NCBI GenBank assembly: GCA_963770565.1
Contig: CAVYQE010000006.1
Span: 1-64,000, forward strand
DNA: 64,000 bases
Source of the DNA: an uncultured Actinomycetota bacterium
GTDB taxonomy: Bacteria > Actinomycetota > Actinomycetes > JAFAQI01
Reading direction: 5' to 3'
The notes under the pieces are model-generated. The model saw nothing but the letters and a program-made list of their open reading frames with translations, did not search any database and had not been told where the DNA came from. Shown one piece after another: positions 1 through 13,054 of the stretch. The position numbers were made by a program, and so were the translations under genes. Position 1 is the first letter of the stretch. Every line of letters begins with the position of its first letter.

Positions 1-19
1 GATTGGATATGCAGCAGGC

Positions 20-576
20 ATGAGTGACGTACTCGCCCGGAGCATCGCCGCAACTTCGAGAGCGCGTTGCGGCTCATGGAGGCGGCACTCGCGGACTGCC
101 CCGATAGGTTGTGGGAGGCCGACCTGTGGCCCGGAGATGGGACCACACGTCGTCTCCCGCAGGGCGGACTGCATGGCTCCGCGACCTGGTTCCTCGGCTA
201 CCACGCGCTGACCTGCCTCGACTACGACCTCGGCGGAGACTTCGAGCCGTGGGTGCCTCTAGCGGCTTTCGATGAGAACACATACTCGTTTCCGAACCGC
301 GTCTTCACTAGGGCGGAGCTCCTCGAATACGTCGACTGGTGCCGCCGCCGAGCGCGGCAAAGCTGCGAGACTCTTACCGAGGAGTTGGCTCTGCGTCCGC
401 TGCCAAGCACACATCGATACGCGGGCACCCCTTACGGCGACATTGTCACTGCCATTCCACTCCACGTGGTTGAACACGCCTCGCAGATCCGCCAGTTCCT
501 CAGCAGCTCAGGCGTCTCGGTGCAACCGATGCCCGGCGACCAGGGCTACACAGGATCAATCGCAACCGAGCGGTAA
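20..576 (+). CDS. DinB/YfiT-like family protein, apparent 1-nt frameshift near 47-51
   Basis: ORF 67..576 has DinB-type motifs (WFLGYHAL...HVVEHASQI). ATG at 20 gives MSDVLARSIA, which joins RNFESALRLMEAAL in the frame of 67 if one base is restored. Confidence 0.7.
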
Positions 577-598
577 GTGATGCCACTCTGCACGTTCC

Positions 599-1138
599 TC
601 AGGTAGCCGTTGTAGTTGAGATCCAGTAGTGGCGTTTCGTTTCCCGCTGAGGGGTCGCCGGCAAGACTTGGGTTAGTCGACCACCGCAACGCTCGATGAC
701 GCGGGCGGACGTGAGGTTGTCGTCGTTGCAGGTGAGCAGTACCTGATCCAGACCGAGGTCGGCGGCGATGCCGATCGCTTGCCTCAGCATCTGGGTCGCA
801 TGACCACGTCGCCGAAACTGCGGCCGCACGGCGTAGCCGACGTGGCCGCCAACCTCCGCGAGGTGCTCGTTCAGGCAATGGCGGATCGAGACGATGCCGA
901 TCAGCTCGCCTGAGGCTTCGGCAGCCAGGATTGTGACCGGGACCCACCCAGCCGGCAGGTCATAACCGTCGGCCATGCGAGCGATCCGGTCGAGATAGTC
1001 GCTCCACGTGTCGTCGGAAGCCCAACCTTCGAGAAGATCGAAGCCGTCAGCAGCTAGTTCGTCATGTGCTGCCAAAGCGTCCGTCTCGTCGCGCAGCAGT
1101 AGTGGCCGCAGTCGGACCTCATTCTCTGTAGTCGCCAC
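599..1138 (-). CDS. GNAT family N-acetyltransferase
   Basis: C-terminal part of ORF 599..1861: GGHVGYAVRPQFRRRGHAT (acetyl-CoA motif A) and TCNDDNLTSARVIERCGG. Start placed at GTG 1138; the upstream extension overlaps other genes. Confidence 0.85.
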   Translation of the reverse strand: MATTENEVRLRPLLLRDETDALAAHDELAADGFDLLEGWASDDTWSDYLDRIARMADGYDLPAGWVPVTILAAEASGELIGIVSIRHCLNEHLAEVGGHVGYAVRPQFRRRGHATQMLRQAIGIAADLGLDQVLLTCNDDNLTSARVIERCGGRLTQVLPATPQRETKRHYWISTTTAT

Positions 1139-1234
1139 CAAACCAGGATCGCGCAGCGCATCAAACTTGGGGCGAACCGATGTGCCGATCCCCGTCGGCG
1201 ACCGCCCGCCCGCGGCAGGGGGTAGGAATGCGGT

Positions 1235-1438
1235 ATGGAGATCCGCCGGCTCTTCTCTTGGAGGATGAACCTCTACCGCCTCATCGTGGGAGCAGTAGTC
1301 CTGGCCATCGTCTTGCCGTCCTGGGCGGCCGGGGTGCGGGCAACCTGGCTTGTTGTGACCGCGTGCATTGTTGTGGTTCTTGCAGGGGTCATTGTCGGCA
1401 GGCGGGTGCCACTCGTCCGAGGATGGCTGCGCCGCTGA
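1235..1438 (+). CDS. Small membrane protein, two hydrophobic segments
   Basis: 67-aa ORF with two hydrophobic stretches and a basic C-terminus. Alternative start at ATG 1266-region after GGAGG. Confidence 0.45.
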   Translation: MEIRRLFSWRMNLYRLIVGAVVLAIVLPSWAAGVRATWLVVTACIVVVLAGVIVGRRVPLVRGWLRR

Positions 1439-1536
1439 TGGCAATGGCGCCGAAACGGTCATGCCCGTGTGCGATGCCGGGAGTGCCAGAACATCGAACT
1501 CGCGGGGCTCGCCAGCCGCCGCTCCCGATGAAGGCG

Positions 1537-1752
1537 CTACTCGGGTCTTGAGAGGTACAGCGGGAAGAACACGATCCAGAGGATCAGGCATCCAGCGGCC
1601 CACGCCGTTGGGGTGCGGATGACGAGGTCTCCGGCGCGAACCGTCACCGGACGGCCGGCTCCCATGCGCTGCTTCGCGTCGCCATAGACCCATAGATCGA
1701 GGGCGATCCCCAGGCCGAGAACGATCAGCGGGGCAAGCGCTGTAGCGGACAC
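1537..1752 (-). CDS. Small membrane protein (71 aa), paralog of 6274..6489
   Basis: 3' part of ORF 1537..2163 from GTG 1752; DLWVYxDAK...WAAGCLILWIxFFPLYL is shared with 6274..6489. Confidence 0.7.
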   Translation of the reverse strand: MSATALAPLIVLGLGIALDLWVYGDAKQRMGAGRPVTVRAGDLVIRTPTAWAAGCLILWIVFFPLYLSRPE

Positions 1753-1860
1753 GGGGCACACGGCATAAGTGATGCCATAACGGAGCGGGGCCTCCCGCTC
1801 CTGTGAGTACCGCAGGAGACTGCGGTTGCTCATAAACCCACATGGTGAGGGAGGCCACCA

Positions 1861-2907
1861 ATGAGTGACGGTATCGCTAGGAAGAAGCAGTTCGTCGGCG
1901 TCGACCTGCATCTGCACCGGTCGGTGATCGTGCGGATCGACAACCGCGGTCGCGAGCTCGAGTGCGTGCGGATCGACAACTCTGTGTCCGGCCTTGTCGC
2001 TGAAGTGGCGAAGGCTGGGCAGGGTGCGCCGGTCGCGATCGAGGCGACATATGGCTGGTACTGGGCGGTCGACGCGTTGCAGGCGAAGGGTTTCGAGGTG
2101 CATCTCGCGCACCCGTACGGGATGAAGCAGATGCGGAAGCGGCGCCGGGTGAAGACTGACCATGCGGATGCGCTGGAGTTGGCGCGGCTGATGCGGCTTG
2201 GTTCACTGCCGGAGGCCTACATCGCCCCGGTCGAGCTTCGGGAGCTGCGGGAGCTGGTCCGCCACCGCCAGCAGCTGACGAAGGTCGCGACCTCAACCAA
2301 GGGCGGGATCCGCGCCGGGTTGGCGAAGCACGGGATCCGTCTGCCGGTCAGCAAGCTGAACACGGTTGCTGGGTCGGATCTGCTCGATGAGCTACGGCTT
2401 CCGGGCTACTACGGGCAGCGGCTCGCCGCGCAACGCCGGATGATGATGCTCGTCGAAGACGAGCTGGCTCGGGTGGAGCGCGAGCTGGACCGTCGGCTGA
2501 AGACCGACCCGGACTACCGGCGGCTGCAGAGGATCAAAGGGATCGGTCCGATCCTCGCGGCGGTGTTCGTCGTCGAGATCGGTGATGTGAGCCGGTTCCG
2601 CAACGCGGCCGCGATCACCTGCTGGGCCGGGCTGACTCCACGGGTGCATGAGTCCGACCGGCGCCGACACGACGGCTCGATCAGCAAGGAAGGCTGCGCC
2701 CTGGTCCGGTGGGCCGCAGTCGAATCGGTGCAACGCCAATGCGAACCAGTCATCCGAGCCGTCCGGGACGACATCCTCGCCCGCCGCGGGAAGAGAGCGA
2801 AGAACACCGCGAAAGTCGCCGCCGCCAGGCGGATGCTCGAGGTCGTCTACTACACGCTGCGTGACGGTGAGGCCCGTTGCCTGACCAAGCCGGTCGCCGC
2901 CGCGTGA
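1861..2907 (+). CDS. IS110 family transposase/recombinase (DEDD RuvC-like + Transposase_20)
   Basis: GVDLH, IEAT and KTDHADA (DEDD residues), IKGIGPILA, WAGLTPRVHES (serine finger), VAAARRML; RBS GGGAGG upstream. Confidence 0.95.
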   Translation: MSDGIARKKQFVGVDLHLHRSVIVRIDNRGRELECVRIDNSVSGLVAEVAKAGQGAPVAIEATYGWYWAVDALQAKGFEVHLAHPYGMKQMRKRRRVKTDHADALELARLMRLGSLPEAYIAPVELRELRELVRHRQQLTKVATSTKGGIRAGLAKHGIRLPVSKLNTVAGSDLLDELRLPGYYGQRLAAQRRMMMLVEDELARVERELDRRLKTDPDYRRLQRIKGIGPILAAVFVVEIGDVSRFRNAAAITCWAGLTPRVHESDRRRHDGSISKEGCALVRWAAVESVQRQCEPVIRAVRDDILARRGKRAKNTAKVAAARRMLEVVYYTLRDGEARCLTKPVAAA

Positions 2908-2919
2908 ACACCGTCAAGA

Positions 2920-3125
2920 CTTCGTGCGGGTCGAAGTAGCGGCATGACCCACCCTCGGGTGCGGTCGACGAAGTGAATGACCCCACGACCCTGGAACCCA
3001 GGGACGCTCGCACGGCTTCATGCTGACCACCACGTCGCGAAGGGATGCCTGACAGCAAACTGGCTGTCGCCGAGCTCTGCCATTTCAAACTGAAGCCGAA
3101 CCTGACAACCACATAGCGACGCCGG
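2920..3125 (+). ncRNA. Putative bridge/seek RNA of the IS110 element
   Basis: Stem 2928-2932/2979-2983 closes an internal loop carrying CGGCAT (2940-2945) and AAGTGA (2971-2976), which match the insertion target. A second domain (stem 3033-3038/3116-3121) carries AGGGATGCC, identical to the IS right end. RNA ends are approximate. Confidence 0.7.
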
Positions 3126-3359
3126 CAACACAGTCTGCGTCAACCACGAGACGGCCTCAACACCGTTCGTCCTCGCGCTCCGCGCTCCGGGCGCTGCGTG
3201 TTGACCCCGCCCCGCGATCGACGCCGCCCTTGATCTGCCGACCATCGCCGAAGAACGCTCAAAACAAACAGTTGACGGCCCCACTCCGTTCAGGGATGCC
3301 GTTCTTCGACGCTCGATCGTCGCGCACTTCGTGCACGTGATCCGGCGTAGCGTGCGCGA

Positions 3360-3746
3360 ATGGCACGCCTTGCTGACATCGTGTTCGACTGCGAACATCC
3401 CGCCTCGCTGGCGCGGTGGTGGGCCGCGGCGCTCGATGGCTACCGGGTCGCTGCTTACGACGAAGTTGAACTTGAGCGGTTGCGGGCCCGGGGGGTGTTC
3501 GATCCTGAGGATGACCCGAACGTCTTGGTCGAACCGAAGAGTGGCGAAGGGCCGCGCTTTTGGTTTCAACGGGTGCCAGAGCACAAGGAACATAAGAACC
3601 GGCTGCACCTCGATCTGCGCGCGGACGACCTCGAAGTTGAGGTGAGCCGCTTCGTTGAAATGGGCGCGACGGAGCTTTACCGACTCGGGACCAACGTGAC
3701 CTTGACGGACCCTGAGGGCAACGAGTTCTGTCTCGGACCGGGCTAG
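3360..3746 (+). CDS. VOC/glyoxalase-like family protein
   Basis: DIVFDCEHPASLARWWAAAL...FQRVPEHKEHKNRLHLDL...DPEGNEFC; TAGCGT-N6-ATG leaderless-type start. Confidence 0.9.
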   Translation: MARLADIVFDCEHPASLARWWAAALDGYRVAAYDEVELERLRARGVFDPEDDPNVLVEPKSGEGPRFWFQRVPEHKEHKNRLHLDLRADDLEVEVSRFVEMGATELYRLGTNVTLTDPEGNEFCLGPG

Positions 3747-3930
3747 CGCGAGGCGATGTCGCGGCCGGTCGGTCCGTTTCAGGGCGCCCGCGAAGTGTGA
3801 TCGCATGTGCTTGCCGGCGTTCACACTGTCGCTATTCGTCTGCGAGGCTGTATTCGACGATCACAACTTGGGATCGGGACGGCGGGCATTGCATCGGAGT
3901 TGAGGGCGTGAGGGAGGGAGCGGAAGCGGT

Positions 3931-4581
3931 ATGCGCATCATCGGAGCTGGCCTCGGTCGGACGGGAACCAACTCGCTGAAGCTGGCGCTCGAGCGGCTTC
4001 TTGGTCGCCCGACCTATCACATGATTGAGGTGCAGCGGCATCTTGACCATGTCCCCACCTGGCGCGCAGCCCTGCGCGGCGAGCCCGTCGACTGGGAGCC
4101 GGTCCTCGGCAATTACGCGGCGACTGTGGACTGGCCAGGTGCGGCGGTCTGGCGTGAGCTAGTTGCCGAGAACCCGGAGGCGGTCGTCCTGCTCTCGACG
4201 AGACGTGACGCGGCCACCTGGCTGGCGAGCGCGCGGGCGACGGTTATGGACAGCTCTGATCGGCTGGAGGACGAGCCCGACATGCCGGGATACATGGCGA
4301 TGGTCCGAGAGATGTACGAGATGTTTGACCCCCTCTGGCGGGATGACGGCGCTGCGATGACTGCTTATGAGCGGCATGCAGCGTCAGTGCGTCGCGAGGT
4401 CCGCGCGGATCGGCTCGTCGAGTGGCAACCGGGCGACGGTTGGGGGCCACTATGCGTCGCGCTCGGCGCGGCGGTGCCGCCAGAGCCTTTCCCACATGTC
4501 AACTCGACAGAGGAATACCGCGCGCGGCTCAGTCAGATCGAGAGCCGGCTGGCTGCTTCGAGAGACACCATCCACGAATGA
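3931..4581 (+). CDS. Sulfotransferase-family (P-loop) protein
   Basis: IIGAGLGRTGTNSLKLALE, YHM, VDWP, GDGWGPLC, PFPHVN motifs. Confidence 0.9.
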   Translation: MRIIGAGLGRTGTNSLKLALERLLGRPTYHMIEVQRHLDHVPTWRAALRGEPVDWEPVLGNYAATVDWPGAAVWRELVAENPEAVVLLSTRRDAATWLASARATVMDSSDRLEDEPDMPGYMAMVREMYEMFDPLWRDDGAAMTAYERHAASVRREVRADRLVEWQPGDGWGPLCVALGAAVPPEPFPHVNSTEEYRARLSQIESRLAASRDTIHE

Positions 4582-4714
4582 TCGCCATACAGGTGCCGAC
4601 ATGGTCACCGGCTCGCGCGAATTGTCATCGAGCGGTCGTTCTCGATCGTTCGCGTCTCTGAGCGCGACGGTCTGGAGGCCGCTATGTTCGGCCGTGCTGA
4701 CCCGGGAGGTTGAT

Positions 4715-5137
4715 GTGCAGATCGAGTCTGTAACCAGTGTCGCTGTCATCACAGCGGACGCGCCAGCGAGCCGCGCGCTCTACATGGAGGCTCTCGGGCT
4801 GCCCCTCAAGCAGCTCGACGGTGACTACTTCGCGAGCGGCGAGATACCTGGGTGCAATCACTTCGGTGTGTGGCCCATCGAACAAGCTGCCGAAGCTTGC
4901 TTCGGCACACGGTCGTGGCCGGAGGGCATCACAAGACCTCAGGTGAGCGTGGAGTTTGAGCTGGCATCTGCGACGGCTGTGAGCGACGGCGTGCGGGAAT
5001 TGCGGTCCCGTGGATACGAGATGCTGCACGATGCCAAGGTCGAACCGTGGGGACAGACCGTGGCACGTCTTCTGTCGCCGGAAGGCGCCGTCTTCGGGCT
5101 CTCGTACGCCCCGTCGCTGCACGAGCATGTGACATGA
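4715..5137 (+). CDS. VOC/glyoxalase family protein
   Basis: GTG 4715 after GGAGG; HFGVWP...PQVSVEFE...EPWGQTVARLLSPEG. Confidence 0.85.
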   Translation: MQIESVTSVAVITADAPASRALYMEALGLPLKQLDGDYFASGEIPGCNHFGVWPIEQAAEACFGTRSWPEGITRPQVSVEFELASATAVSDGVRELRSRGYEMLHDAKVEPWGQTVARLLSPEGAVFGLSYAPSLHEHVT

Positions 5138-5254
5138 CGAACGCGATGCACGGCGGGTAGTGCCGGTTCGCGAGGGCGGCTCGGTTTGGTCGTGACGCAA
5201 TCAAAACCGCGCTGAGCCGGCGTAAACGATCCTGGGCTGCGGCAGACTTCCAGC

Positions 5255-6072
5255 ATGTCGCTGTGGAATGAGCCCGTCCGTGATCTGCGGTCGCTCGCCA
5301 CTGCTGAGCGGCAGGGTTTGCTGCGCTTGCTGGCCGGGATGACCGATGCCGAGTGGCTCGCGCGAGCTGCCATTCCGGGATGGACGGTCAAAGACATCGC
5401 GCTTCATTTGCTCGACGATGACCTGACATGACCTGGCTTTCTCAGGAGCGTGATGGCGAACTTAGCGGGCTGATCAACATGTCAGATCGTCAGATCTTTC
5501 CGAGGTTGCTAGCAGAGAAGAACCAACGGTGGGTAGACGCGGCTCGGGTGATGAGCCGACGCGTGGTCGAGGACCTGCCGCAGTGGAGTGGCGAGCAAGT
5601 CGACGCGCTTCACGCGGGCCGGGACCTACTTGACGAAGGCTGGGTCTCATGGGCCAGCGACGAGCCGGTGCCCTACTGGTTCAACCTGGCGCAGGAGTTC
5701 ACCGAGCGTTGGGTCCATCAACAGCAGATGAGAGAGGCCGTGGACCGCGTGGAGGACCACGACGTGACCCTTCCGGACGTGCTACGTACCTTTATTTGGG
5801 CCTTCCCTCACCAATTCCGCGGTGCCGTCGGGGCGCGCGTGATCCGAATGAGGATCGACCCCCTGGGCGACTGGACGCTCAGCGCCACGGACGACGGCGG
5901 CTGGAACCTCTCCACAGGATCGCCCGGCAGTGCAGATGCTCGTTTGCATCTGACGGCTGATGCGGCGTGGCGCATGCTTACCGGCGCCGAGGTGCCTGCA
6001 GCGTCGATTACGGCAGAAGGTGACGCCGCCATAGTTGAGGCGCTGAGCATGGTGCGCGCGATCATCGTGTAA
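5255..6072 (+). pseudogene. Maleylpyruvate isomerase (MDMPI)-family protein broken by a 5-nt insertion
   Basis: 5255..5431 encodes ...PGWTVKDIALHLLDDDLT*; 5428..6072 continues TWLSQERD...ERWVHQQQMREA. The junction GACC-TGACA-TGACCTGG reads as a 5-nt near-duplication. Confidence 0.75.
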
Positions 6073-6273
6073 GTGATGCCGGTCCAGATCATTCGGATTC
6101 GCCGCGACAGCCGAGCGCCAGTGCAAGTTCTGCTCAAGGCCGCTCGAGGAACAGAAGTGCCGTTACTTCACACAGTTGACCCAGCAAGCAAAGCGTGAGT
6201 AACGCACCTATAGTCTGCCGCCGACAAGCGGCGGACGGTGCCGCGGGCAAGAGCGGCGCATATCGTTCAGAGG

Positions 6274-6489
6274 GTGTCCTTTGCTGCGCTCGCGCCGCTG
6301 GTCATTCTTGGTATCGGGATCACCGCGGACCTGTGGGTCTACGCGGACGCGAAGAGGCGTGCAGACTCCGGGAGTCCGGTCGTTTTCGAGGCGGGCACGT
6401 TCGTTATCGACACACCCGCCGCATGGGCAGCTGGATGCCTGATCCTCTGGATCCTGTTTTTCCCGCTCTATCTCACGTCCCGCGAATAG
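6274..6489 (+). CDS. Small membrane protein (71 aa), paralog of 1537..1752
   Basis: GTG 6274 preceded by TATCGT-N7; 47/71 identical to 1537..1752 by manual alignment. Confidence 0.72.
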   Translation: MSFAALAPLVILGIGITADLWVYADAKRRADSGSPVVFEAGTFVIDTPAAWAAGCLILWILFFPLYLTSRE

Positions 6490-6559
6490 GCCCATCGCGT
6501 GCGGGCGAGTGTCGGCCGCTATGGGCACTTCTTGTTGCGTCGTTGATAGGAATGAAGGC

Positions 6560-6967
6560 GTGAACGAGTTCACGTTCTCGCGGGTGGCTCCGGTTATCCC
6601 GGTGGCCAATCTCAAGCGGGCGCTGCGGCGATATCGCATGCTCGGCTTCTCAGTGCGCTCGTATGGCGGACCGGCCGAGTATGGATACGTCGAGCGAGAT
6701 GGCGTCGAACTTCATGTGAGCGAGTCGCCGGATCACGACCGCCATCACGGCGCCGAGGTGTACCTGTTCGTCTCTGATGCTGACGCGGTGTACGCCGCTT
6801 GGTTGGCTTCCGGCGTGAAGGGCCGGTTCATCCGGCCCCACGACACGGACTACGGCGTTCGCGAGTTCGCTTTCGTCGATCGCGACGGGACGGCGCACCG
6901 AGTCGGCTCGCCGCCAACCCAGAACGGACGAGTCATCGGCCATTCGGGATCGGAACCCGGCGAATAA
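6560..6967 (+). CDS. VOC/bleomycin-resistance-like protein
   Basis: VAPVIPVANLKRALRRY..LGF...YLFVSDADAVY...DTDYGVREFAFVDRDG; start at GTG 6560. Confidence 0.85.
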   Translation: MNEFTFSRVAPVIPVANLKRALRRYRMLGFSVRSYGGPAEYGYVERDGVELHVSESPDHDRHHGAEVYLFVSDADAVYAAWLASGVKGRFIRPHDTDYGVREFAFVDRDGTAHRVGSPPTQNGRVIGHSGSEPGE

Positions 6968-7039
6968 CGCCGGCTCGCGGCGCTGGCTGTGGACGAGCTC
7001 GCGCCTATTGTTCGCTCTTATGATCGGATCGTGGTGCGA

Positions 7040-7756
7040 TCAGCGCCGGGGTGGGAGGGCGTCGAACCCCGCGTCGGCCAGCCACTGTCCGGCCCTTCCG
7101 GTTCGGGTCTCTGCCGAGTACGAGTACCAGGAGGAACGCAGGTCGTCGTGGTCATCGAGGACTCGGCGAAAGCGGGAGAAGGCGCCACGGCCATCGATGG
7201 CGTCGAGTAGCCGGTCGCGGAGCGCGGGATCCTGAACTGTCGTGGCGAACTCGCGCATGTCCTCCCACGCCTCGCGCGAACCCTCATTGGGGATGAACAG
7301 GTACCGATCCGGATCGTCCTCCGGGTCCGGTCGCTCCCCGTCGCCCACCCAGTCATCAAGGGCCCCCTCGGGCCAGGCATCGCCGGTGTTGCAATCCAGC
7401 ACACCGCCGAAGCCCATCTCGAGAGGTCCCTCGAGCAGGTCGGAGACACCGTCGAGGTCGGCGCGGATGCGGCGCCGGCCGGGCGGTAGACCGTCGACGA
7501 TCGCGACGAGCAGCTCCGCCAGCTCAGCGTCGCCGACCCATGACCGTTCAGTGAGTCGCCTCGCGAGGGCCTTGCAGGTGTCCGCGCAGCCGGAGGGGTT
7601 GTCCGGAGCGAGCGCCAAGATCGTCTCCCCGGCTTCCTGCAAATGCGGCTGCAGTGACTCAGCCTGGACGAGCCCCGACAGCTGCATGAGGTCGCCGGTG
7701 GCGGCCGCGATGCGCCATGATCGGACCAGATCTCGCGCGCCCTCGTCCGTCGTCAT
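7040..7756 (-). CDS. UPF0158-domain protein
   Basis: C-terminal SREAWEDMREFA...RLLDAIDGRGAFSRFRRVL...WL is typical of UPF0158; start at ATG 7756. Confidence 0.75.
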   Translation of the reverse strand: MTTDEGARDLVRSWRIAAATGDLMQLSGLVQAESLQPHLQEAGETILALAPDNPSGCADTCKALARRLTERSWVGDAELAELLVAIVDGLPPGRRRIRADLDGVSDLLEGPLEMGFGGVLDCNTGDAWPEGALDDWVGDGERPDPEDDPDRYLFIPNEGSREAWEDMREFATTVQDPALRDRLLDAIDGRGAFSRFRRVLDDHDDLRSSWYSYSAETRTGRAGQWLADAGFDALPPRR

Positions 7757-7837
7757 GAGCCGAGCCTTGCCCAGTCGCCGACCGCCCGCAACTTCGACGT
7801 TCTTGGTACCAGGTACCGGGCCGTCGACCAAGATCGT

Positions 7838-7962
7838 TGGGCCACATCTGGGCCACATCTAGTGGCCCAAGGCGGTAAATCAGGGTCTCTGGCGGGCAAG
7901 GACGCCGCACTTGTGGAGGCTCGAAAACCGGCCCTGACCTGCGAAAACGCTCCGAAAAAGCC
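7838..7962. promoter_or_regulatory. Putative att-junction with integrase arm-type sites next to the tRNA 3' end
   Basis: Tandem TGGGCCACATC x2 (7838-7859), inverted GTGGCCCA (7862-7869) and TGACCTGC (7935-7942), all within ~125 bp of the tRNA CCA end. Confidence 0.55.
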
Positions 7963-8036
7963 TGGAGCGGGTGACGGGAATCGAACCCGCACTGTCAGCT
8001 TGGGAAGCTGATGTTCTGCCATTGAACTACACCCGC
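7963..8036 (-). tRNA. tRNA-Gly (CCC)
   Basis: Reverse strand GCGGGTGTAGTTCAATGGCAGAACATCAGCTTCCCAAGCTGACAGTGCGGGTTCGATTCCCGTCACCCGCTCCA: cloverleaf, anticodon CCC, T-loop GTTCGA, encoded CCA. Confidence 0.97.
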
Positions 8037-8086
8037 GCGCGCCGAAATCGGGCTCGGCGACCGGCCCGAGGATAGCGCCAGCGGCG

Positions 8087-8680
8087 TTACGACGACACCT
8101 TCAGCGGCTTGCTCGCGACCGGCGTACCGGTCACGGCGGCGCCGGTGCCGTCCAGGCGGAACATCCGGACGTTGTACTGCCCGCTCGGGATGTCGACCGT
8201 GAACGAGCCGTTGGCCTTGCACCCGCTCGACAGCTTGGTCGGGAAGACCGCGATCTCGGTGCTGTTGGCCGAACCGCCCGGGTCGGGGATCGGATGCAGC
8301 TGGCCGGGATTGGCGCCCGGCACCAGCCGGCTGACCCCGATCGCGATCACAAGATGCATGTTCGCCGGGCCAGTGCCCGACCATCGGATCGTCGCGCCGC
8401 GATGGATGCTCGCCGAGCTCAGCGCGATCGCCGGCGTCTTGCAGTTGGTCACGAGCGTCGGCGCGCGGGCGTCGAGGCCATTGCGGATCAGGATCGCGAC
8501 GACGATCGCCGCCACTCCCCCGAGCGTCCACTTCCAGGTCGAGCGCTTCGGCAGGTCGACCGAGGTCGCCAGCGGCTTCGGCATCTCGGTGGCGCCGGCC
8601 GCCCGCTCGCGGCGCTGGAACTCGGTCTCCTCGAAGGCGCGTTCCTGCCAGTCGCGGCGGTTGCGCTTCTTCTCTGCCAT
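8087..8680 (-). CDS. Hypothetical single-pass membrane protein
   Basis: 197-aa ORF 10 nt downstream of the Fe-S oxidoreductase; one TM segment then a beta-rich domain with two Cys. Confidence 0.7.
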   Translation of the reverse strand: MAEKKRNRRDWQERAFEETEFQRRERAAGATEMPKPLATSVDLPKRSTWKWTLGGVAAIVVAILIRNGLDARAPTLVTNCKTPAIALSSASIHRGATIRWSGTGPANMHLVIAIGVSRLVPGANPGQLHPIPDPGGSANSTEIAVFPTKLSSGCKANGSFTVDIPSGQYNVRMFRLDGTGAAVTGTPVASKPLKVSS

Positions 8681-8689
8681 CGCGCTCGG

Positions 8690-10783
8690 CTATTCGGCGG
8701 GATCGGGTCCGGCCGGCGCCTCGGTGGCGGTGGCGGCCGCAGGCCGCAGGCCGATCGAGTTGGCGAGCACCTGCGCGATGTCGATCACGGTCACGCCCTG
8801 CGCTTCGCCGTCGGCGCGCTTCGAGGTCACCGCGTCGTCGAGCATGATCAGGCAGTAGGGGCACGACGTCGCGATGATCTCCGCGCCGGTGCCGAGCGCC
8901 TCTTCGGTGCGCTCGACGTTGACCCGCTTGCCGATCCGCTCCTCCATCCACATCCGCGAACCGCCTGCGCCACAACAGAATCCGCGCTTGCCGTGCCGGT
9001 GCATCTCGACCCGCTCCAGGCCCGGTACGGCGTCGAGCACCGTGCGCGGTGCGTCGTACTCGTTGTTGTGCCGGCCGAGGTAGCAGGGGTCGTGGTAGGT
9101 CAGCTTCGCGACGATCGGGTCCTGCGGCGTCAGCTTGCCTTCCGCCACCAACCGGCCGAGCAGCTGCGAGTGGTGCACGACCTCGTAGTTGCCGCCGAGC
9201 GCCGGGTATTCGTTGCCGATCGTGTTGAAGCAGTGCGGGCACGACGCGATGATCTTCTTCACGCCGGCGCCGTCGAGGGTCTCGATGTTGGCCTTCGCCA
9301 TCTCCTGCCAGAGGTATTCGTTGCCGAGCCGGCGGGCCGGGTCGCCGGTGCACGACTCCCCCGCGCCGAGAATCGCGAACTTCACCCCAGCCGCGTGCAT
9401 GACCCGTGCGATCGCTTGCGTCGACTTGCGCGCGCGGTCGTCGAGCCCACCCGCGCAGCCGACCCAGTACAGCCACTCGACATCGTCGGGGATCCGGCCC
9501 GACACGACCGGGATGTCGAACTCGATCGCCTCGGTCCACTCCTCGCGCATGTCGGCGCGCAGGCCCCACGGGTTGCCGTGGTTCTCGACGTTGCGCAGCA
9601 TCGTGCCCGCCTCGCTCGGGAACGACGACTCCATCAGCACCTGATAGCGGCGCAGGTCGAGGATCGTGTCGACGTGCTCGATGTCGACCGGGCACTCCTC
9701 GACGCAGGCGCCGCAGGTCGTGCAGGCCCACAACGCGTCGGGGTCGATGACGTCCGGCACCAGCGACACCGGCTCCATCTCGGAGCCGTCCTCGGCCTTC
9801 GCGCCGAGTAGCCGGTCCGCCTGCGCGAACATCGAGTCGCGCAGGTTGGTGATGATCAGCTTCGGGTTGAGCGGCTTGCCGGTCGCCCAGGCCGGGCACT
9901 TGTCCTGGCAGCGCCCGCACTCGGTGCAGGCCAGGGTCTGCAGCAACTGTTGATGGTGCAGGTGCTCGATGATGCCGGCGCCGAGGACCGCGTCCTCGTC
10001 CTCCATCAGCTTCTCGAGATCCGGCGTCGTACCCAGCGGGCCGAGCGCCTTGGGCTGCCGCTTCATCGAGGCGTTCAACGGCGCGGTGAAGATGTGCATG
10101 TGCTTGCTCGAGAGCACGAAGATCAGGAAGCCCATGACGACCGCGATCTGGGCGACGATGAAGATCGTCTCGAACGCCTCGCTGTCCGGCGTGATGTACG
10201 ACGTGGCCTTCGACGCGAACGCCCACCAGCCGTCGTGCTGGTAGGGGAAGTAGCCGCTCTGGATCTGGGCGCCGCGGTAGAGCAGCAGCGTGGCGATGAC
10301 CAGGAAGATCATCCCGAGGACCAGGAACGCCTGGTCGGTGTGCGAGCCGTAGAACCGGGATCTGCGGTCGAGCCGCCGCGGCGAGTTCTTCAGCCGGATC
10401 ACGGTGAACACGACCAGCGCCAGAACGACCGCGGTCGCGAAGCCGTCCTCGAGCACCGCGACCGCCCGGGTGTGGCCGATCCACGGGAGCGCGAAGTCAC
10501 GGCTGAACAGCGCCCCGTAGGCCTCGATGATCGTCAGGAACAGCACCACGAAGCCCCAGAAGGTCAGGGCGTGCGCGATCCCGGCGACCTTGACCTTGAA
10601 CAGCTTGCGCTGCCCGAAGACGTCGATCAGCTGGGCCTTGATCGCGCCGAAGACGTGCGGGCGCCGTTCGGGCGGGATCGGCGCGCCGGCGAGGACCAGC
10701 CGGGCCAGCCACTGGACCCGGTAGGCCGCGGCGGCGAGCGCGACGACGGTGACAACCAGCCCGGCAACGAGTCGAACGGTCAC
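8690..10783 (-). CDS. Membrane-bound Fe-S oxidoreductase (FadF/heterodisulfide-reductase-like, CCG domains)
   Basis: N-terminal TMs; CTECGRCQDKCP and CTTCGACVEECP ferredoxin motifs; CPHC, YHDPCYLGR, CCGAGG. Confidence 0.92.
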   Translation of the reverse strand: MTVRLVAGLVVTVVALAAAAYRVQWLARLVLAGAPIPPERRPHVFGAIKAQLIDVFGQRKLFKVKVAGIAHALTFWGFVVLFLTIIEAYGALFSRDFALPWIGHTRAVAVLEDGFATAVVLALVVFTVIRLKNSPRRLDRRSRFYGSHTDQAFLVLGMIFLVIATLLLYRGAQIQSGYFPYQHDGWWAFASKATSYITPDSEAFETIFIVAQIAVVMGFLIFVLSSKHMHIFTAPLNASMKRQPKALGPLGTTPDLEKLMEDEDAVLGAGIIEHLHHQQLLQTLACTECGRCQDKCPAWATGKPLNPKLIITNLRDSMFAQADRLLGAKAEDGSEMEPVSLVPDVIDPDALWACTTCGACVEECPVDIEHVDTILDLRRYQVLMESSFPSEAGTMLRNVENHGNPWGLRADMREEWTEAIEFDIPVVSGRIPDDVEWLYWVGCAGGLDDRARKSTQAIARVMHAAGVKFAILGAGESCTGDPARRLGNEYLWQEMAKANIETLDGAGVKKIIASCPHCFNTIGNEYPALGGNYEVVHHSQLLGRLVAEGKLTPQDPIVAKLTYHDPCYLGRHNNEYDAPRTVLDAVPGLERVEMHRHGKRGFCCGAGGSRMWMEERIGKRVNVERTEEALGTGAEIIATSCPYCLIMLDDAVTSKRADGEAQGVTVIDIAQVLANSIGLRPAAATATEAPAGPDPAE

Positions 10784-10849
10784 GCCGGAAGCGTACGAGC
10801 CTGGGGCCGGCGGCGCGTGACCGGCACGCGCCGGAGCCGCCGGCCGAGC

Positions 10850-11029
10850 TCAGAGGTGGTGGGCGAGCCAGCCGATGAACGGGATCATGATCACCGGCGC
10901 GCTGAACACGACCAGCCCGAAGACGATCGTCCCGGCGAGCAGCCTGACCCGCAGCCGCGGCGCCCCGCGGGTGTCCTGCAGCCGGCCCAGCACGCGTGAA
11001 CGGTACGCCGATTTGAGCCGCCTTGGCAC
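10850..11029 (-). CDS. Small hypothetical membrane protein
   Basis: Basic N-terminus plus hydrophobic C-terminus; start moved to GTG 11029 so it does not overlap the dnaK promoter. Confidence 0.5.
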   Translation of the reverse strand: MPRRLKSAYRSRVLGRLQDTRGAPRLRVRLLAGTIVFGLVVFSAPVIMIPFIGWLAHHL

Positions 11030-11071
11030 CGTCCGGGCAATTTCCAGGGTTATCAAGTCACGACAAAATAA

Positions 11072-11145
11072 GTTGAGCCTGATCCGCTCAAGAAGGAATT
11101 GACAGGCCACCCGGCATCGTTCACCATGAGTAAGAGCGACTCAAC
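11072..11145 (+). promoter_or_regulatory. dnaK promoter with two HAIR (HspR) operators
   Basis: GTTGAGC-N7-GCTCAAG (11072-11092) and CATGAGT-N7-ACTCAAC (11125-11145) resemble CTTGAGT-N7-ACTCAAG; TTGACA at 11099, 17-nt spacer, CACCAT. Confidence 0.88.
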
Positions 11146-11192
11146 TTACCGATGAGCCGCACCCCGGACACAGAAGCGAAAGGTCAATCACC

Positions 11193-13054
<1,862 letters not shown>

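Follow-up and report, generated by a model that had tools for sequence, protein, structure and literature searches.

A probable IS1111-group insertion sequence with a TG core and predicted target guides in a soil actinobacterial tRNA-Gly island

The IS1111 elements for which a seekRNA has been described, ISEc11, ISPa11, ISKpn4 and ISPst6 (Siddiquee et al. 2024, PMC11187229), carry subterminal inverted repeats, and their transposase gene is followed by a long non-coding region; the transposases of the group are given as 330-350 amino acids long. In the bridge RNA system of IS621 (Durrant et al. 2024, PMC11208160; Hiraizumi et al. 2024, PMC11208158), a DEDD and serine recombinase is paired with an RNA that has two internal loops, and the dinucleotide core lies within both guide pairings. 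A further relative, annotated as an 'IS110 family transposase' on plasmid pROB01 of Rhodococcus opacus B4 (NC_012520.1), falls in the same clade as the element treated here (48% amino-acid identity); the best identity that we found to annotated plasmid copies was at most 49%.

The element at 1772-3298 of the window (i.e., the whole 64,000-nucleotide stretch of DNA that was analysed) resembles the four seekRNA elements in its repeats, its non-coding region and its 348-residue transposase, and resembles IS621 in its recombinase, its two predicted loops and the inclusion of the core in both guide pairings. It is very likely an insertion sequence, probably active, of the IS110 family, IS1111 group, in which a DEDD/serine recombinase and a bridge (seek) RNA encoded at the 3' end would recombine TG with TG. 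Our analysis documents the family membership, boundaries, core and target consensus of the element, along with covariation between guides and flanks and within stems. There are also differences. In contrast to ISEc11, ISPa11, ISKpn4 and ISPst6, the present element comes from a high-GC soil lineage, its RNA is a prediction, and its serine motif is ESD, in 10/10 relatives, instead of S(T)G. Relative to IS621, TG replaces CT as the core, the RNA would be encoded in the right end instead of the left, the order of the guide strands is reversed, and no right donor guide was found. As PMC11187229 and PMC11208160 report for IS1111 elements, the guides are located 3', and the segment that matches the top strand precedes, on its 5' side, the one that matches the bottom strand. 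The parts of the element on which these comparisons draw are as follows.

1772-3296, + strand: insertion sequence proper, 1,525 bp (1,527 bp including one TG core, 1772-3298), with ends taken from empty-site comparisons
1772-1778, + strand: left terminal extension ATGCCAT, which relatives keep as ATGC[CG]AT
1779-1792, + strand: left subterminal inverted repeat AACGGAGCGGGGCC, complementary to 3277-3290 at 13 of 14 positions and conserved in relatives
1861-2907, + strand: recombinase gene (348 aa), with D15, E61, D100 and D103 and a catalytic-type S265 in the motif ESD
3277-3290, + strand: right subterminal inverted repeat GGCCCCACTCCGTT, read from the sequence

The recombinase matches PF01548 (E = 1.2e-20) and, in its C-terminal part, PF02371 (E = 8.2e-21), both of which mark the IS110 family, and it scores 213.7 bits on the NCBIfam model NF033542, 'IS110 family RNA-guided transposase', for which the cut-off is 140. 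An alignment of 10 sequences shows no variation at D15, E61, D100, D103 or S265, and S265 aligns to the serine of the ESG motif of IS621 (8wt6, E = 9.8e-14). The region corresponding to the IS1111 motif GL-P----S(T)G reads GLTPRVHESD, such that G, L, P and S are present and the final residue is D, not G, in 10/10 relatives. The structure of the DNA points the same way: a short core common to donor and target, site-specific insertion and the lack of long terminal inverted repeats are those of the IS110 family, and subterminal inverted repeats set 7 (left) and 6 (right) bases inside the element ends, in keeping with the 7-17 bp expected of the IS1111 group, accompany 391 nt of non-coding DNA downstream of the recombinase gene (2908-3298) vs. 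89 nt upstream (1772-1860), again as in that group. An IS1111-type element had been placed here by a sequence-only reading of the window, and this is borne out, Pfam and NCBIfam giving the IS110 family and the subterminal repeats agreeing with the IS1111 group. The genome holds three copies of the insertion sequence, one of them frameshifted, with 100% identity across 1777-3294; a search for related loci among genome contigs, with the single protein as query, gave one locus.

Where the element ends, and what it shares with its target, can be read from sites that lack it.

1767-1769, + strand: left target (LT) bases AAG (AGG in copies 2 and 3), which the left target guide would read
1770-1771, + strand: left copy of the TG core; 66/70 related left junctions read NNN-TG-ATG, and empty sites have a single TG
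3297-3298, + strand: right copy of the TG core; 52/55 related right ends read CAGGRA-TG-N6
3299-3312, + strand: right target (RT) CCGTTCTTCGACGC, which also opens the 51-bp repeat (3298-3348)

Positions 173829-175039 of contig C6 match the left flank of copy 3 along 1,211 bp with 99.7% identity, and the junction there runs GGTG, then CCGTTCTCG, without ATG. The paralogue of the window's right flank on contig C2 reads ACGTG, then CCGTTCTTCGAC. In Rhodococcus, the site occupied in pROB01 is empty in the DK176 and VOC-14 plasmids, and a single TG stands between the flanks, which proves the TG core of that element; its end architecture is the same as that seen here (left ...C-TG-ATGCGATGAAGG, right ...ACA-TG), but its target, GACC-TG-ACCTGTG, is different, and its guide bases are changed to suit. 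In the window, the insert thus consists of the insertion sequence plus one TG core, and the empty site, AAG-TG-CCGTTC, lies in ...ACGGCA-TAAG-TGCCGT..., with 6-bp arms. All three genomic copies sit in RRG-TG-CCGTTCT, and a fourth junction, from a soil-run contig, agrees (...TG-CCGTTCTT, then unrelated DNA). Across the junctions in relatives there are 22 different LT triplets and 30 different RT hexamers, and the target rule for this soil-actinobacterial clade would be a TG preceded by about 3-4 nt and followed by about 6 nt. A search for orthologous empty sites in the families of G096 (12 genomes) and G253 (39 genomes) gave no match over most of the query except in the genome from which the query came.

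The hexamer GATGCC does occur at both ends (1771-1776 and 3295-3300), as the sequence-only reading had noted, and removal of the element with one GATGCC had been taken to restore a target with 7-bp arms; the empty and paralogous sites show a single TG and 6-bp arms instead. GATGCC seems duplicated because the element starts with ATGCC and ends in ...GGGA, and the target happens to go on with CC. It is very improbable that the core or duplication is nevertheless (G)ATG(CC), that the empty site is AAGTG-ATG-CCGTT, and that the sites at 575 and 6071 discussed below are real targets. Such a geometry would accommodate the GATGCC at each end, a possible reading in which the two guide strands overlap on ATG, and the over-representation of the motif near the insertion sequence, but three independent empty or paralogous sites are without ATG, and the Rhodococcus empty site largely refutes it. 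It would also demand that LT end in an unchanging TG in 66/70 unrelated insertions, and it would leave the circle junction without a -10-like hexamer. On these comparisons the shared core is TG, not GATGCC, with ATGCC as the conserved first five bases of the element.

The difference in register bears directly on which neighbouring sequences can be regarded as unoccupied targets.

575-585, + strand: AAGTGATGCCA, a left-junction look-alike and not a target
6071-6081, + strand: AAGTGATGCCG, a left-junction look-alike and not a target, present also in the paralogue on contig C2 (C2:891369)
6152-6166, + strand: GAAG-TG-CCGTTAC (exact match 6155-6164), the sole exact unoccupied target-like site in the window by decamer search

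Since the apparent 6-bp duplication shifts the reconstruction of the target by three bases, it gives rise to false empty targets: the true target is three bases shorter than had been supposed, and the two nearby sequences, although present at 6071-6081 and 575-585 as reported, are therefore not targets. They match LT, TG and the first 5-6 bases of the element (five of these in AAGTGATGCCG) and are thus mimics of the left junction, AAGTGATGCC. Their motif has five matches in the window at one mismatch or fewer, vs. 0.93 expected, a number that 0/100 shuffles reach; and AAGTGATGCC has nine genomic copies, three of them within 6.1 kb, a local excess for which the TG-core model gives no account. 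The similarity of the 575 and 6071 sites to the insertion sequence is not beyond chance, and we do not regard either as an internally deleted relic.

The left junction holds two TGs three bases apart (TG-A-TG), and excision through the second of these would leave 3 bp behind, such that the AAGTGATGCC at 575 and 6071 would be scars of register-shifted excision, i.e., former targets carrying an extra ATG. Base composition predicts about 4.2 genomic copies of the 10-mer and nine are seen, three of them within 6.1 kb and one more in the paralogue, and CCGTT follows 27 nt past the 575 site and 86 nt past the 6071 site. We nonetheless consider these scars decidedly unlikely. IS110 excision is described as scarless in PMC11208160, and the stretches from the motifs to the downstream CCGTT are without similarity to the insertion sequence (277/300 and 276/300 shuffles score at least as high). 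With the ATG taken out, moreover, neither right half of these two sites (CCGGTC and CCACTC) is more than a partial fit to the guide.

Post and Hall in 2009, Tobes and Pareja in 2006, and Partridge and Hall in 2003 are said to have described IS1111 elements at attC sites, REP sequences or Tn21 inverted repeats. The present element is like these in its site- and orientation-specific insertion at a short sequence of which a genome may have several copies; unlike theirs, its target 11-mer is common, often in coding sequence, and belongs to no defined repeat family, and one of its three copies stands at the edge of a repeat inside an island. That insertion, in the window, adjoins a 51-bp repeat present three times across two paralogous tRNA-Gly islands (one at window 1-8036, the other at the end of contig C2). 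In the C2 paralogue, the site equivalent to 6152-6166 is occupied by a different IS1111-type element.

It is possible, if unlikely, that these islands contain a cassette-like array with a recurrent junction (the 51-bp repeat or GTGCCGTT(N)CTTC, often palindromic) for which both this element and the second IS1111-type element are specialised, in the manner of the attC and REP users. Each of the three copies of the 51-bp repeat lies upstream of a gene, and the insertion sequence sits exactly at the left edge of the repeat; the C2 island has its different IS110-family element in an overlapping motif; the two islands differ by gene blocks; and several of the sites are palindromic by eye. Against such specialisation, copies 2 and 3 are found away from the islands, beside other repeats in unrelated surroundings. 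Genome-wide, RRGTGCCGYTC has 74 sites vs. 50 for the reversed control; being common, it is not a rare safe haven. Apart from the occupied site, the window has a single exact copy of the target decamer, which is therefore not present at every gene junction, and its seven matches at one mismatch or fewer are at chance level (5.1 expected). A recurrent, conserved array junction motif, as the sequence-only reading had envisaged, was thus not found in any general form; nor did a repeat search of 1-12000 reveal, among the 20 largest of at least 60 families, any that recurs at every gene junction. No integron integrase is present among the ten ORFs of 1-6967, and the XerA/integron-integrase model, whose cut-off is 220, gives 42.9 bits for the tyrosine recombinase that the paralogous island encodes. 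An integron cassette array, lacking an adjoining integrase and a recombination site at each cassette boundary, was not adopted.

Combining the two ideas, the tRNA-Gly islands would be a cassette-like array, the 51-bp repeat and the GTGCCGTT(N)CTTC junctions would be landing pads for at least two RNA-guided IS1111-type elements, and the nearby AAGTGATGCC would be 3-bp scars, with the consequence that excision by a bridge recombinase is not always scarless; we hold this combination to be improbable, to the same degree as the scars themselves. That the recombinase builds or rearranges the small-gene array by target-to-target recombination, as had also been suggested, is barely credible. The homology between the window and the C2 island turns strong exactly at the insertion point, but weak homology persists to the left of it, the block differences between the islands do not, where examined, end at target motifs, and no inverted or deleted segment between two targets was found; of such activity we saw no sign. 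In our reading, 1772-3298 is a typical IS110/IS1111-type mobile element with its own predicted guide RNA, and we see in it no departure from the published mechanism.

The non-coding 3' region of the element contains segments that would form such an RNA.

2924-2986, + strand: predicted target-binding internal loop, with P1 formed by 2924-2932 and 2979-2986 and the P2 hairpin by 2946-2966
2933-2945, + strand: 5' loop strand GAAGUAGCGGCAU, predicted right target guide, in which 2938-2942 pairs with RT and 2943-2944 (CA) with the TG core
2967-2978, + strand: 3' loop strand GACGAAGUGAAU, predicted left target guide, in which 2970-2973 is GAAG and 2974-2975 is the UG core
3013-3098, + strand: second internal loop, presumed to be donor-binding, with P4 formed by 3013-3020 and 3091-3098 and the P5 hairpin by 3051-3068
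3041-3049, + strand: left-donor-guide-like segment AGGGAUGCC, in the same sense as the right end, TG and the first two RT bases (3292-3300)

In P1 and P2, 89.7% of cells are paired, vs. 35-48% in slid controls, five pairs show compensatory change, and the covariation score is reached by 0/500 shuffles; over 66 sequences, pairing is 84% in P1b and 93% in P2. Both guides follow the flanking DNA. The reverse complement of the right guide matches RT positions 1-6 in 70-88% of 43 relatives (summed match 5.51 vs. a maximum of 4.19 in 2,000 permutations), and LT positions -1 to -4 before the TG match the left guide in 97, 62, 57 and 47% of 40 relatives, compared with 43, 32, 29 and 33% when permuted (summed match 3.92 vs. 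a maximum of 3.42, also in 2,000 permutations). Covarying stems and covariation between guides and flanks that includes the core, as in bridge and seekRNAs, are therefore both present, the segments 2938-2945 and 2970-2976 covarying with the flanks in about 40 relatives, although the covariation counts take in related sequences and keep six rows with mis-extracted guides. The right target guide is imperfect for the sites in use (its reverse complement reads CCGCTA vs. CCGTTC, with one G-T wobble and one mismatch). One extra guide base past the core fits the recombinant junction, like the handshake base of IS621 in PMC11208160 and PMC11208158, and U2945 is possibly such a base. Thus, of the claim that the element had evolved a guide to this array motif, the guide itself stands, in that 3' segments match the insertion site and covary with it, and evolution for the array motif does not: TG is the core clade-wide and, being present at 66/70 left junctions of relatives, did not evolve for the window locus.

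The evidence for a donor loop is of the same kind. P4 is 82% paired (26-35% in slid controls), with exchanges among CG, GC and AT and between TA and CG, and P5 is 81% paired. The segment 3041-3049 covaries with the RT-proximal guide base (GC 15, UA 12 and CG 3, of 30), and at one related locus, L004, the donor-like segment and the matching end are both GGAATGGC. No right donor guide could be assigned in the non-coding region. In an RNAalifold consensus of 30 sequences, the 3041-3049 segment became the partner of the right target guide and P1 and P2 were not recovered, which we read as both segments tracking the same DNA. The fold of the whole 3' non-coding region is no better than that of shuffles (z = -0.62), and a scan of 1-8000 against Rfam, with E up to 1, gave no match in the insertion sequence and two chance miRNA-like matches outside it. 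Two further candidates were set aside. A P3 helix, as placed, is 39.6% paired, and we claim none. A second right-flank guide at 3249-3257, where 9 nt are complementary to CGTTCTTCG, was rejected as a general feature: over 49 loci the longest match averages 5.94 nt vs. 5.90 nt in mismatched pairs, and a 9-nt match is reached by 27/2,070 controls.

The main value of these results is correct annotation: for a soil-actinobacterial IS1111-type clade they give exact ends, the TG core, the places where the target guides lie and a rule for the target. Any element whose core and guides have been mapped is a candidate programmable recombinase. By the mechanism that we propose, the DEDD/serine recombinase would work with a bridge (seek) RNA from the 3' non-coding region, at about 2924-3100, whose internal loop, closed by the two covarying stems, would offer the two guides. 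The TG of the circular element would then recombine with the TG of the target, leaving the element between AAG-TG and CCGTTC with a TG at each junction. We infer from the sequence that the RNA would be made and bound by the recombinase, that the intermediate would be circular, and that the donor guides are assigned as above. Contigs from four soil DNA runs, which are short and give partial cover, contained no circle junction, no joint across the insertion sequence and no excised site, and none of the sequencing runs listed for the stretch is of RNA. Scans of the integrated element for sigma-70 promoters and for terminators returned 0 and 0. Once the right end is joined to the left, a junction promoter (TTGACG, 17 nt, GATGAT) would probably be assembled, its first part being supplied by the following hexamer.

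3272-3277, + strand: TTGACG, a -35-like hexamer 17 nt before the right end, of which TTGAC is kept in 7/7 aligned elements

A mobile element is present at 1761-3305 of the window, and the sequence-only reading, which called it an IS1111-type element with a guide, spotted it correctly, as judged by its family matches, repeats, downstream non-coding DNA and the covariation between guide and flanks. Its features are as follows (window coordinates).

Features of the element
1779-1792 and 3277-3290: subterminal inverted repeats, 13/14 match
1861-2907: recombinase gene, 348 aa (Pfam PF01548 DEDD_Tnp_IS110, E 1.2e-20; PF02371, E 8.2e-21)
2924-2932 with 2979-2986: stem P1
2933-2945: 5' loop strand, GAAGUAGCGGCAU, reverse complement of A-TG-CCGCUACUUC
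2946-2966: hairpin P2
2967-2978: 3' loop strand, GACGAAGUGAAU, same sense as GAAG-TG-A
3013-3020 with 3091-3098: P4, 82% paired, with CG/GC/AT and TA/CG exchanges
3051-3068: P5, 81% paired

The gene product scores 213.7 bits (cut-off 140) against NCBIfam NF033542, 'IS110 family RNA-guided transposase', and a phmmer search of PDB chains matches it to IS621 (8wt6, E 9.8e-14) and ISCro4; in the phmmer alignment an ESD lies opposite the ESG of IS621, and when ten relatives are aligned, D15, E61, D100, D103 and S265 never vary. The gene is preceded by 89 nt of non-coding DNA and followed by 391 nt. Subterminal repeats and downstream non-coding DNA are features of the IS1111 group according to PMC11187229, and the sole departure from that description is in the motif GL-P----S(T)G, whose last residue is here D. 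The IS is an ordinary member of the published IS1111-type mechanism.

Three copies, 100% identical over 1777-3294, are found in the genome (4.43 Mb in 11 contigs); the copy on contig C2 has one additional base, and its gene is broken into two frames.

Flanks of the three copies
copy 1 (window): AAGTG ATGCC[IS]GATG CCGTTCTTCGAC
copy 2: AGGTG ATGCC[IS]GATG CCGTTCTTCGAT
copy 3: AGGTG ATGCC[IS]GATG CCGTTCTCGATC

A soil-run contig supplies a fourth right junction (...TG-CCGTTCTT, then unrelated DNA). Copy 3 is close to the end of a 1.2-kb duplication, and copy 2 has an IS630-type element as its neighbour, which begins 28 bp to its right; this 1.13-kb element, with DDE_3 and HTH domains, exists in four copies (L098:9255-10391 on contig C6, C11:674786, C1:940700 and C2:471274).

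Four sequence comparisons show the common core to be TG and assign ATGCC to the IS. The 1,211 bp that flank copy 3 on its left have a 99.7% identical paralogue at C6:173829-175039, which continues GGTG|CCGTTCTCG, without ATG, before diverging. The right flank of the window copy (3297-6164) is 95.9% identical to C2:888546-891462, where C2 reads ACGTG|CCGTTCTTCGAC. Among relatives (one MAG contig, 7 of 401 class genomes at E <= 1e-90, and 80 metagenome loci retained out of 559 confirmed relatives), left junctions read NNN-TG-ATG... in 66 of 70, with 22 distinct NNN, and right ends read CAGGRA-TG-N6 in 52 of 55, with 30 distinct hexamers; because TG and its adjoining bases are fixed while both neighbours vary, they represent the IS's own end plus a fixed core. 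An independent test comes from Rhodococcus opacus B4 plasmid pROB01, in which a related element (48% amino-acid identity) has the junctions ...GACC-TG-ATGCGATG... and ...ATACA-TG-ACCTGTG..., and the orthologous empty sites on the DK176 and VOC-14 plasmids read ...GACC-TG-A[CT]CTGTG..., with one TG only.

Given a TG core, the inserted DNA is 1772-3298 (1,527 bp counting one core) and the empty site is ACGGCA-TAAG-TGCCGT. The earlier restoration, by removing the IS and one GATGCC, is thus superseded, since neither the paralogues nor the empty sites carry the ATG; the apparent 6-base duplication results from an IS start of ATGCC and an IS end of GGGA with the target continuing CC. The inverted repeat reported for the restored site is retained, with arms of 6 rather than 7 bp. 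Because the earlier target was 3 bases too long, both proposed empty targets fall away: AAGTGATGCCA (575) and AAGTGATGCCG (6071) consist of the left target bases, TG and the first 5-6 IS bases, and are therefore copies of the left junction, whose right halves as targets would be ATGCC..., outside the guide's reading. The left-junction 10-mer has nine genomic occurrences versus three for a reversed control (about 4.2 expected by arithmetic from base composition); three of the nine fall within the window's first 6.1 kb, another is the C2 paralogue of 6071, and this local excess is real. A hypothetical excision shifted in register to the second TG of TG-A-TG would produce a 3-bp scar of exactly this kind; the stretches behind the 575 and 6071 motifs yielded no IS similarity.

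As a true target-like site, AAGTGCCGTT has one further occurrence in the window (6155-6164), allowing one mismatch at most gives the window a chance-level number of matches (7 versus 5.13; 24 of 100 shuffles reach 7), and RRGTGCCGYTC occurs 74 times genome-wide versus 50 for a control, many of these sites in apparent coding runs GTG-CCG-TTC. The target is thus no rare reserved site.

The claim that a guide matches the insertion site is borne out. In the 3' non-coding region, two stems are predicted to enclose an internal loop: across 30 aligned relatives, P1 and P2 are paired in 89.7% of cells, versus 35-48% when the partner is slid 1-3 columns, five pairs have changes on both sides, and none of 500 shuffles attains the covariation score. 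Over the six bases that follow TG, the 5' strand agrees at 70-88% (34-86% permuted; 43 loci), and its summed match of 5.51 exceeds the highest of 2,000 permutations, 4.19. Over the four bases that precede TG, the 3' strand agrees at 97, 62, 57 and 47% (43, 32, 29 and 33% permuted; 40 loci), summing to 3.92 against a permutation maximum of 3.42. These counts are inflated by kinship among sequences and include six rows with mis-extracted guides, which bias against the result. In one relative (L004) the reverse complement of the guide is GCACTACC and the flank GCACTACCGA, and the left guide GAAC equals the flank GAAC (GAAG in the window); in another (L011) the corresponding pair is CCAGTAGC and CCAGTCCC.

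Strand order and location are those of published IS1111 seekRNAs and bridge RNAs (PMC11187229, PMC11208160), and the core lies within both guide strands, as for IS621 (LTG and RTG in PMC11208160). In each strand, one base past the core matches the recombinant junction and not the target, and probably resembles the IS621 handshake bases of PMC11208158. Between P4 and P5 is a second loop, in which AGGGAUGCC (3041-3049) is identical to the right end plus TG plus CC and covaries with right end and target among relatives; no right donor guide was found. Another segment inside the IS, CGAAGAACG (3249-3257), complements the right flank CGTTCTTCG exactly; as a general guide it was rejected, being not general in relatives and possibly due to chance (27 of 2,070 control pairs have a match at least as long, 9 nt).

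The guides predict (G)AAG-TG-CCGCUA, and the sites used (AAG or AGG, TG, CCGTTC) differ by one G-T wobble and one mismatch. By inspection, with U2937 bulged, GAAG (2933-2936) could also pair with CTTC, from which the sharing of CCGTTCTTC by copies 1 and 2 would follow. The hexamer ACCTGC, in many cases as part of a longer ACCTGCGG, marks 18 of 52 related right junctions in the metagenome loci L018-L097; a common target C-TG-ACCTGCGG would thus serve a large part of the clade. A promoter scan found no sigma-70-like site in the integrated IS. TTGACG (3272-3277) sits 17 nt ahead of position 3295, and in a TG-core circle would face GATGAT (9 of 12 bases agree with the consensus, A2 and T6 among them), an arrangement that would fit the junction promoter described for the IS110 family in PMC11208160.

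The IS lies in an island of small genes (window 1-8036: GNAT, three glyoxalase/VOC, sulfotransferase, DinB-like and two small membrane-protein paralogues), of which 3297-8011 recurs with 96-97.5% identity at the extreme end of C2 (in L017, C2:878000-894948).

Features of the two islands
7963-8036 (window), minus strand: tRNA-Gly(CCC), ending the region
C2:880898-880948: 51-nt tRNA-Gly fragment
L017:3761-5017, minus strand: tyrosine recombinase, 418 aa
L017:13464-15082 (C2:891463-893081): different IS110-family element, subterminal repeats, long 3' non-coding region, inserted in GAAGTGCCGTT|ACTTCAC

The arrangement resembles an integrative island in two copies (tandem or duplicated); the bin may instead combine two strains. 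The sequence-only idea of a recurrent site draws its best support from two facts together: a 51-bp repeat has its left edge at the IS, and the C2 equivalent of 6152-6170 holds the different element, 1.6 kb long and oppositely oriented, whose own gene is of the IS110 family (NF033542, 102.7 bits, under the cut-off). Against it, copies 2 and 3 are situated elsewhere. The repeat (window 3298-3348, C2:887576 and C2:888547) is each time directly upstream of a gene, on C2 of two different genes, and possibly serves as a common promoter or leader. A gene related to that of the C2 element (386 aa, L098:12658-13818) lies near copy 2. The proteins scanned include no integron integrase, and a search for the target motif across the window, together with the 20 largest repeat families of 1-12000, gave no motif recurring at every gene junction. 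As to the recombinase as builder of the array, nothing was found to suggest it.

The two membrane-protein paralogues (1530-1752 and 6274-6496), which encode about 75-83 aa and match no Pfam family, share 70-76% identity in inverted orientation; the IS lies some 10-15 bp upstream of the start of the minus-strand one and may cut off its promoter. The DinB/MDMPI-like gene (5255-6072) occupies two overlapping frames (5255-5431 and 5428-6072), a possible frameshift. Window 577-1430 (GNAT gene and a 67-aa ORF) has no blastn counterpart in the C2 island, so the islands differ by gene blocks; the first 56 nt of the window alone align there, upstream of a different gene. The C2 island also contains a run of about 16 C (C2:888250-888275), possibly an assembly artefact.
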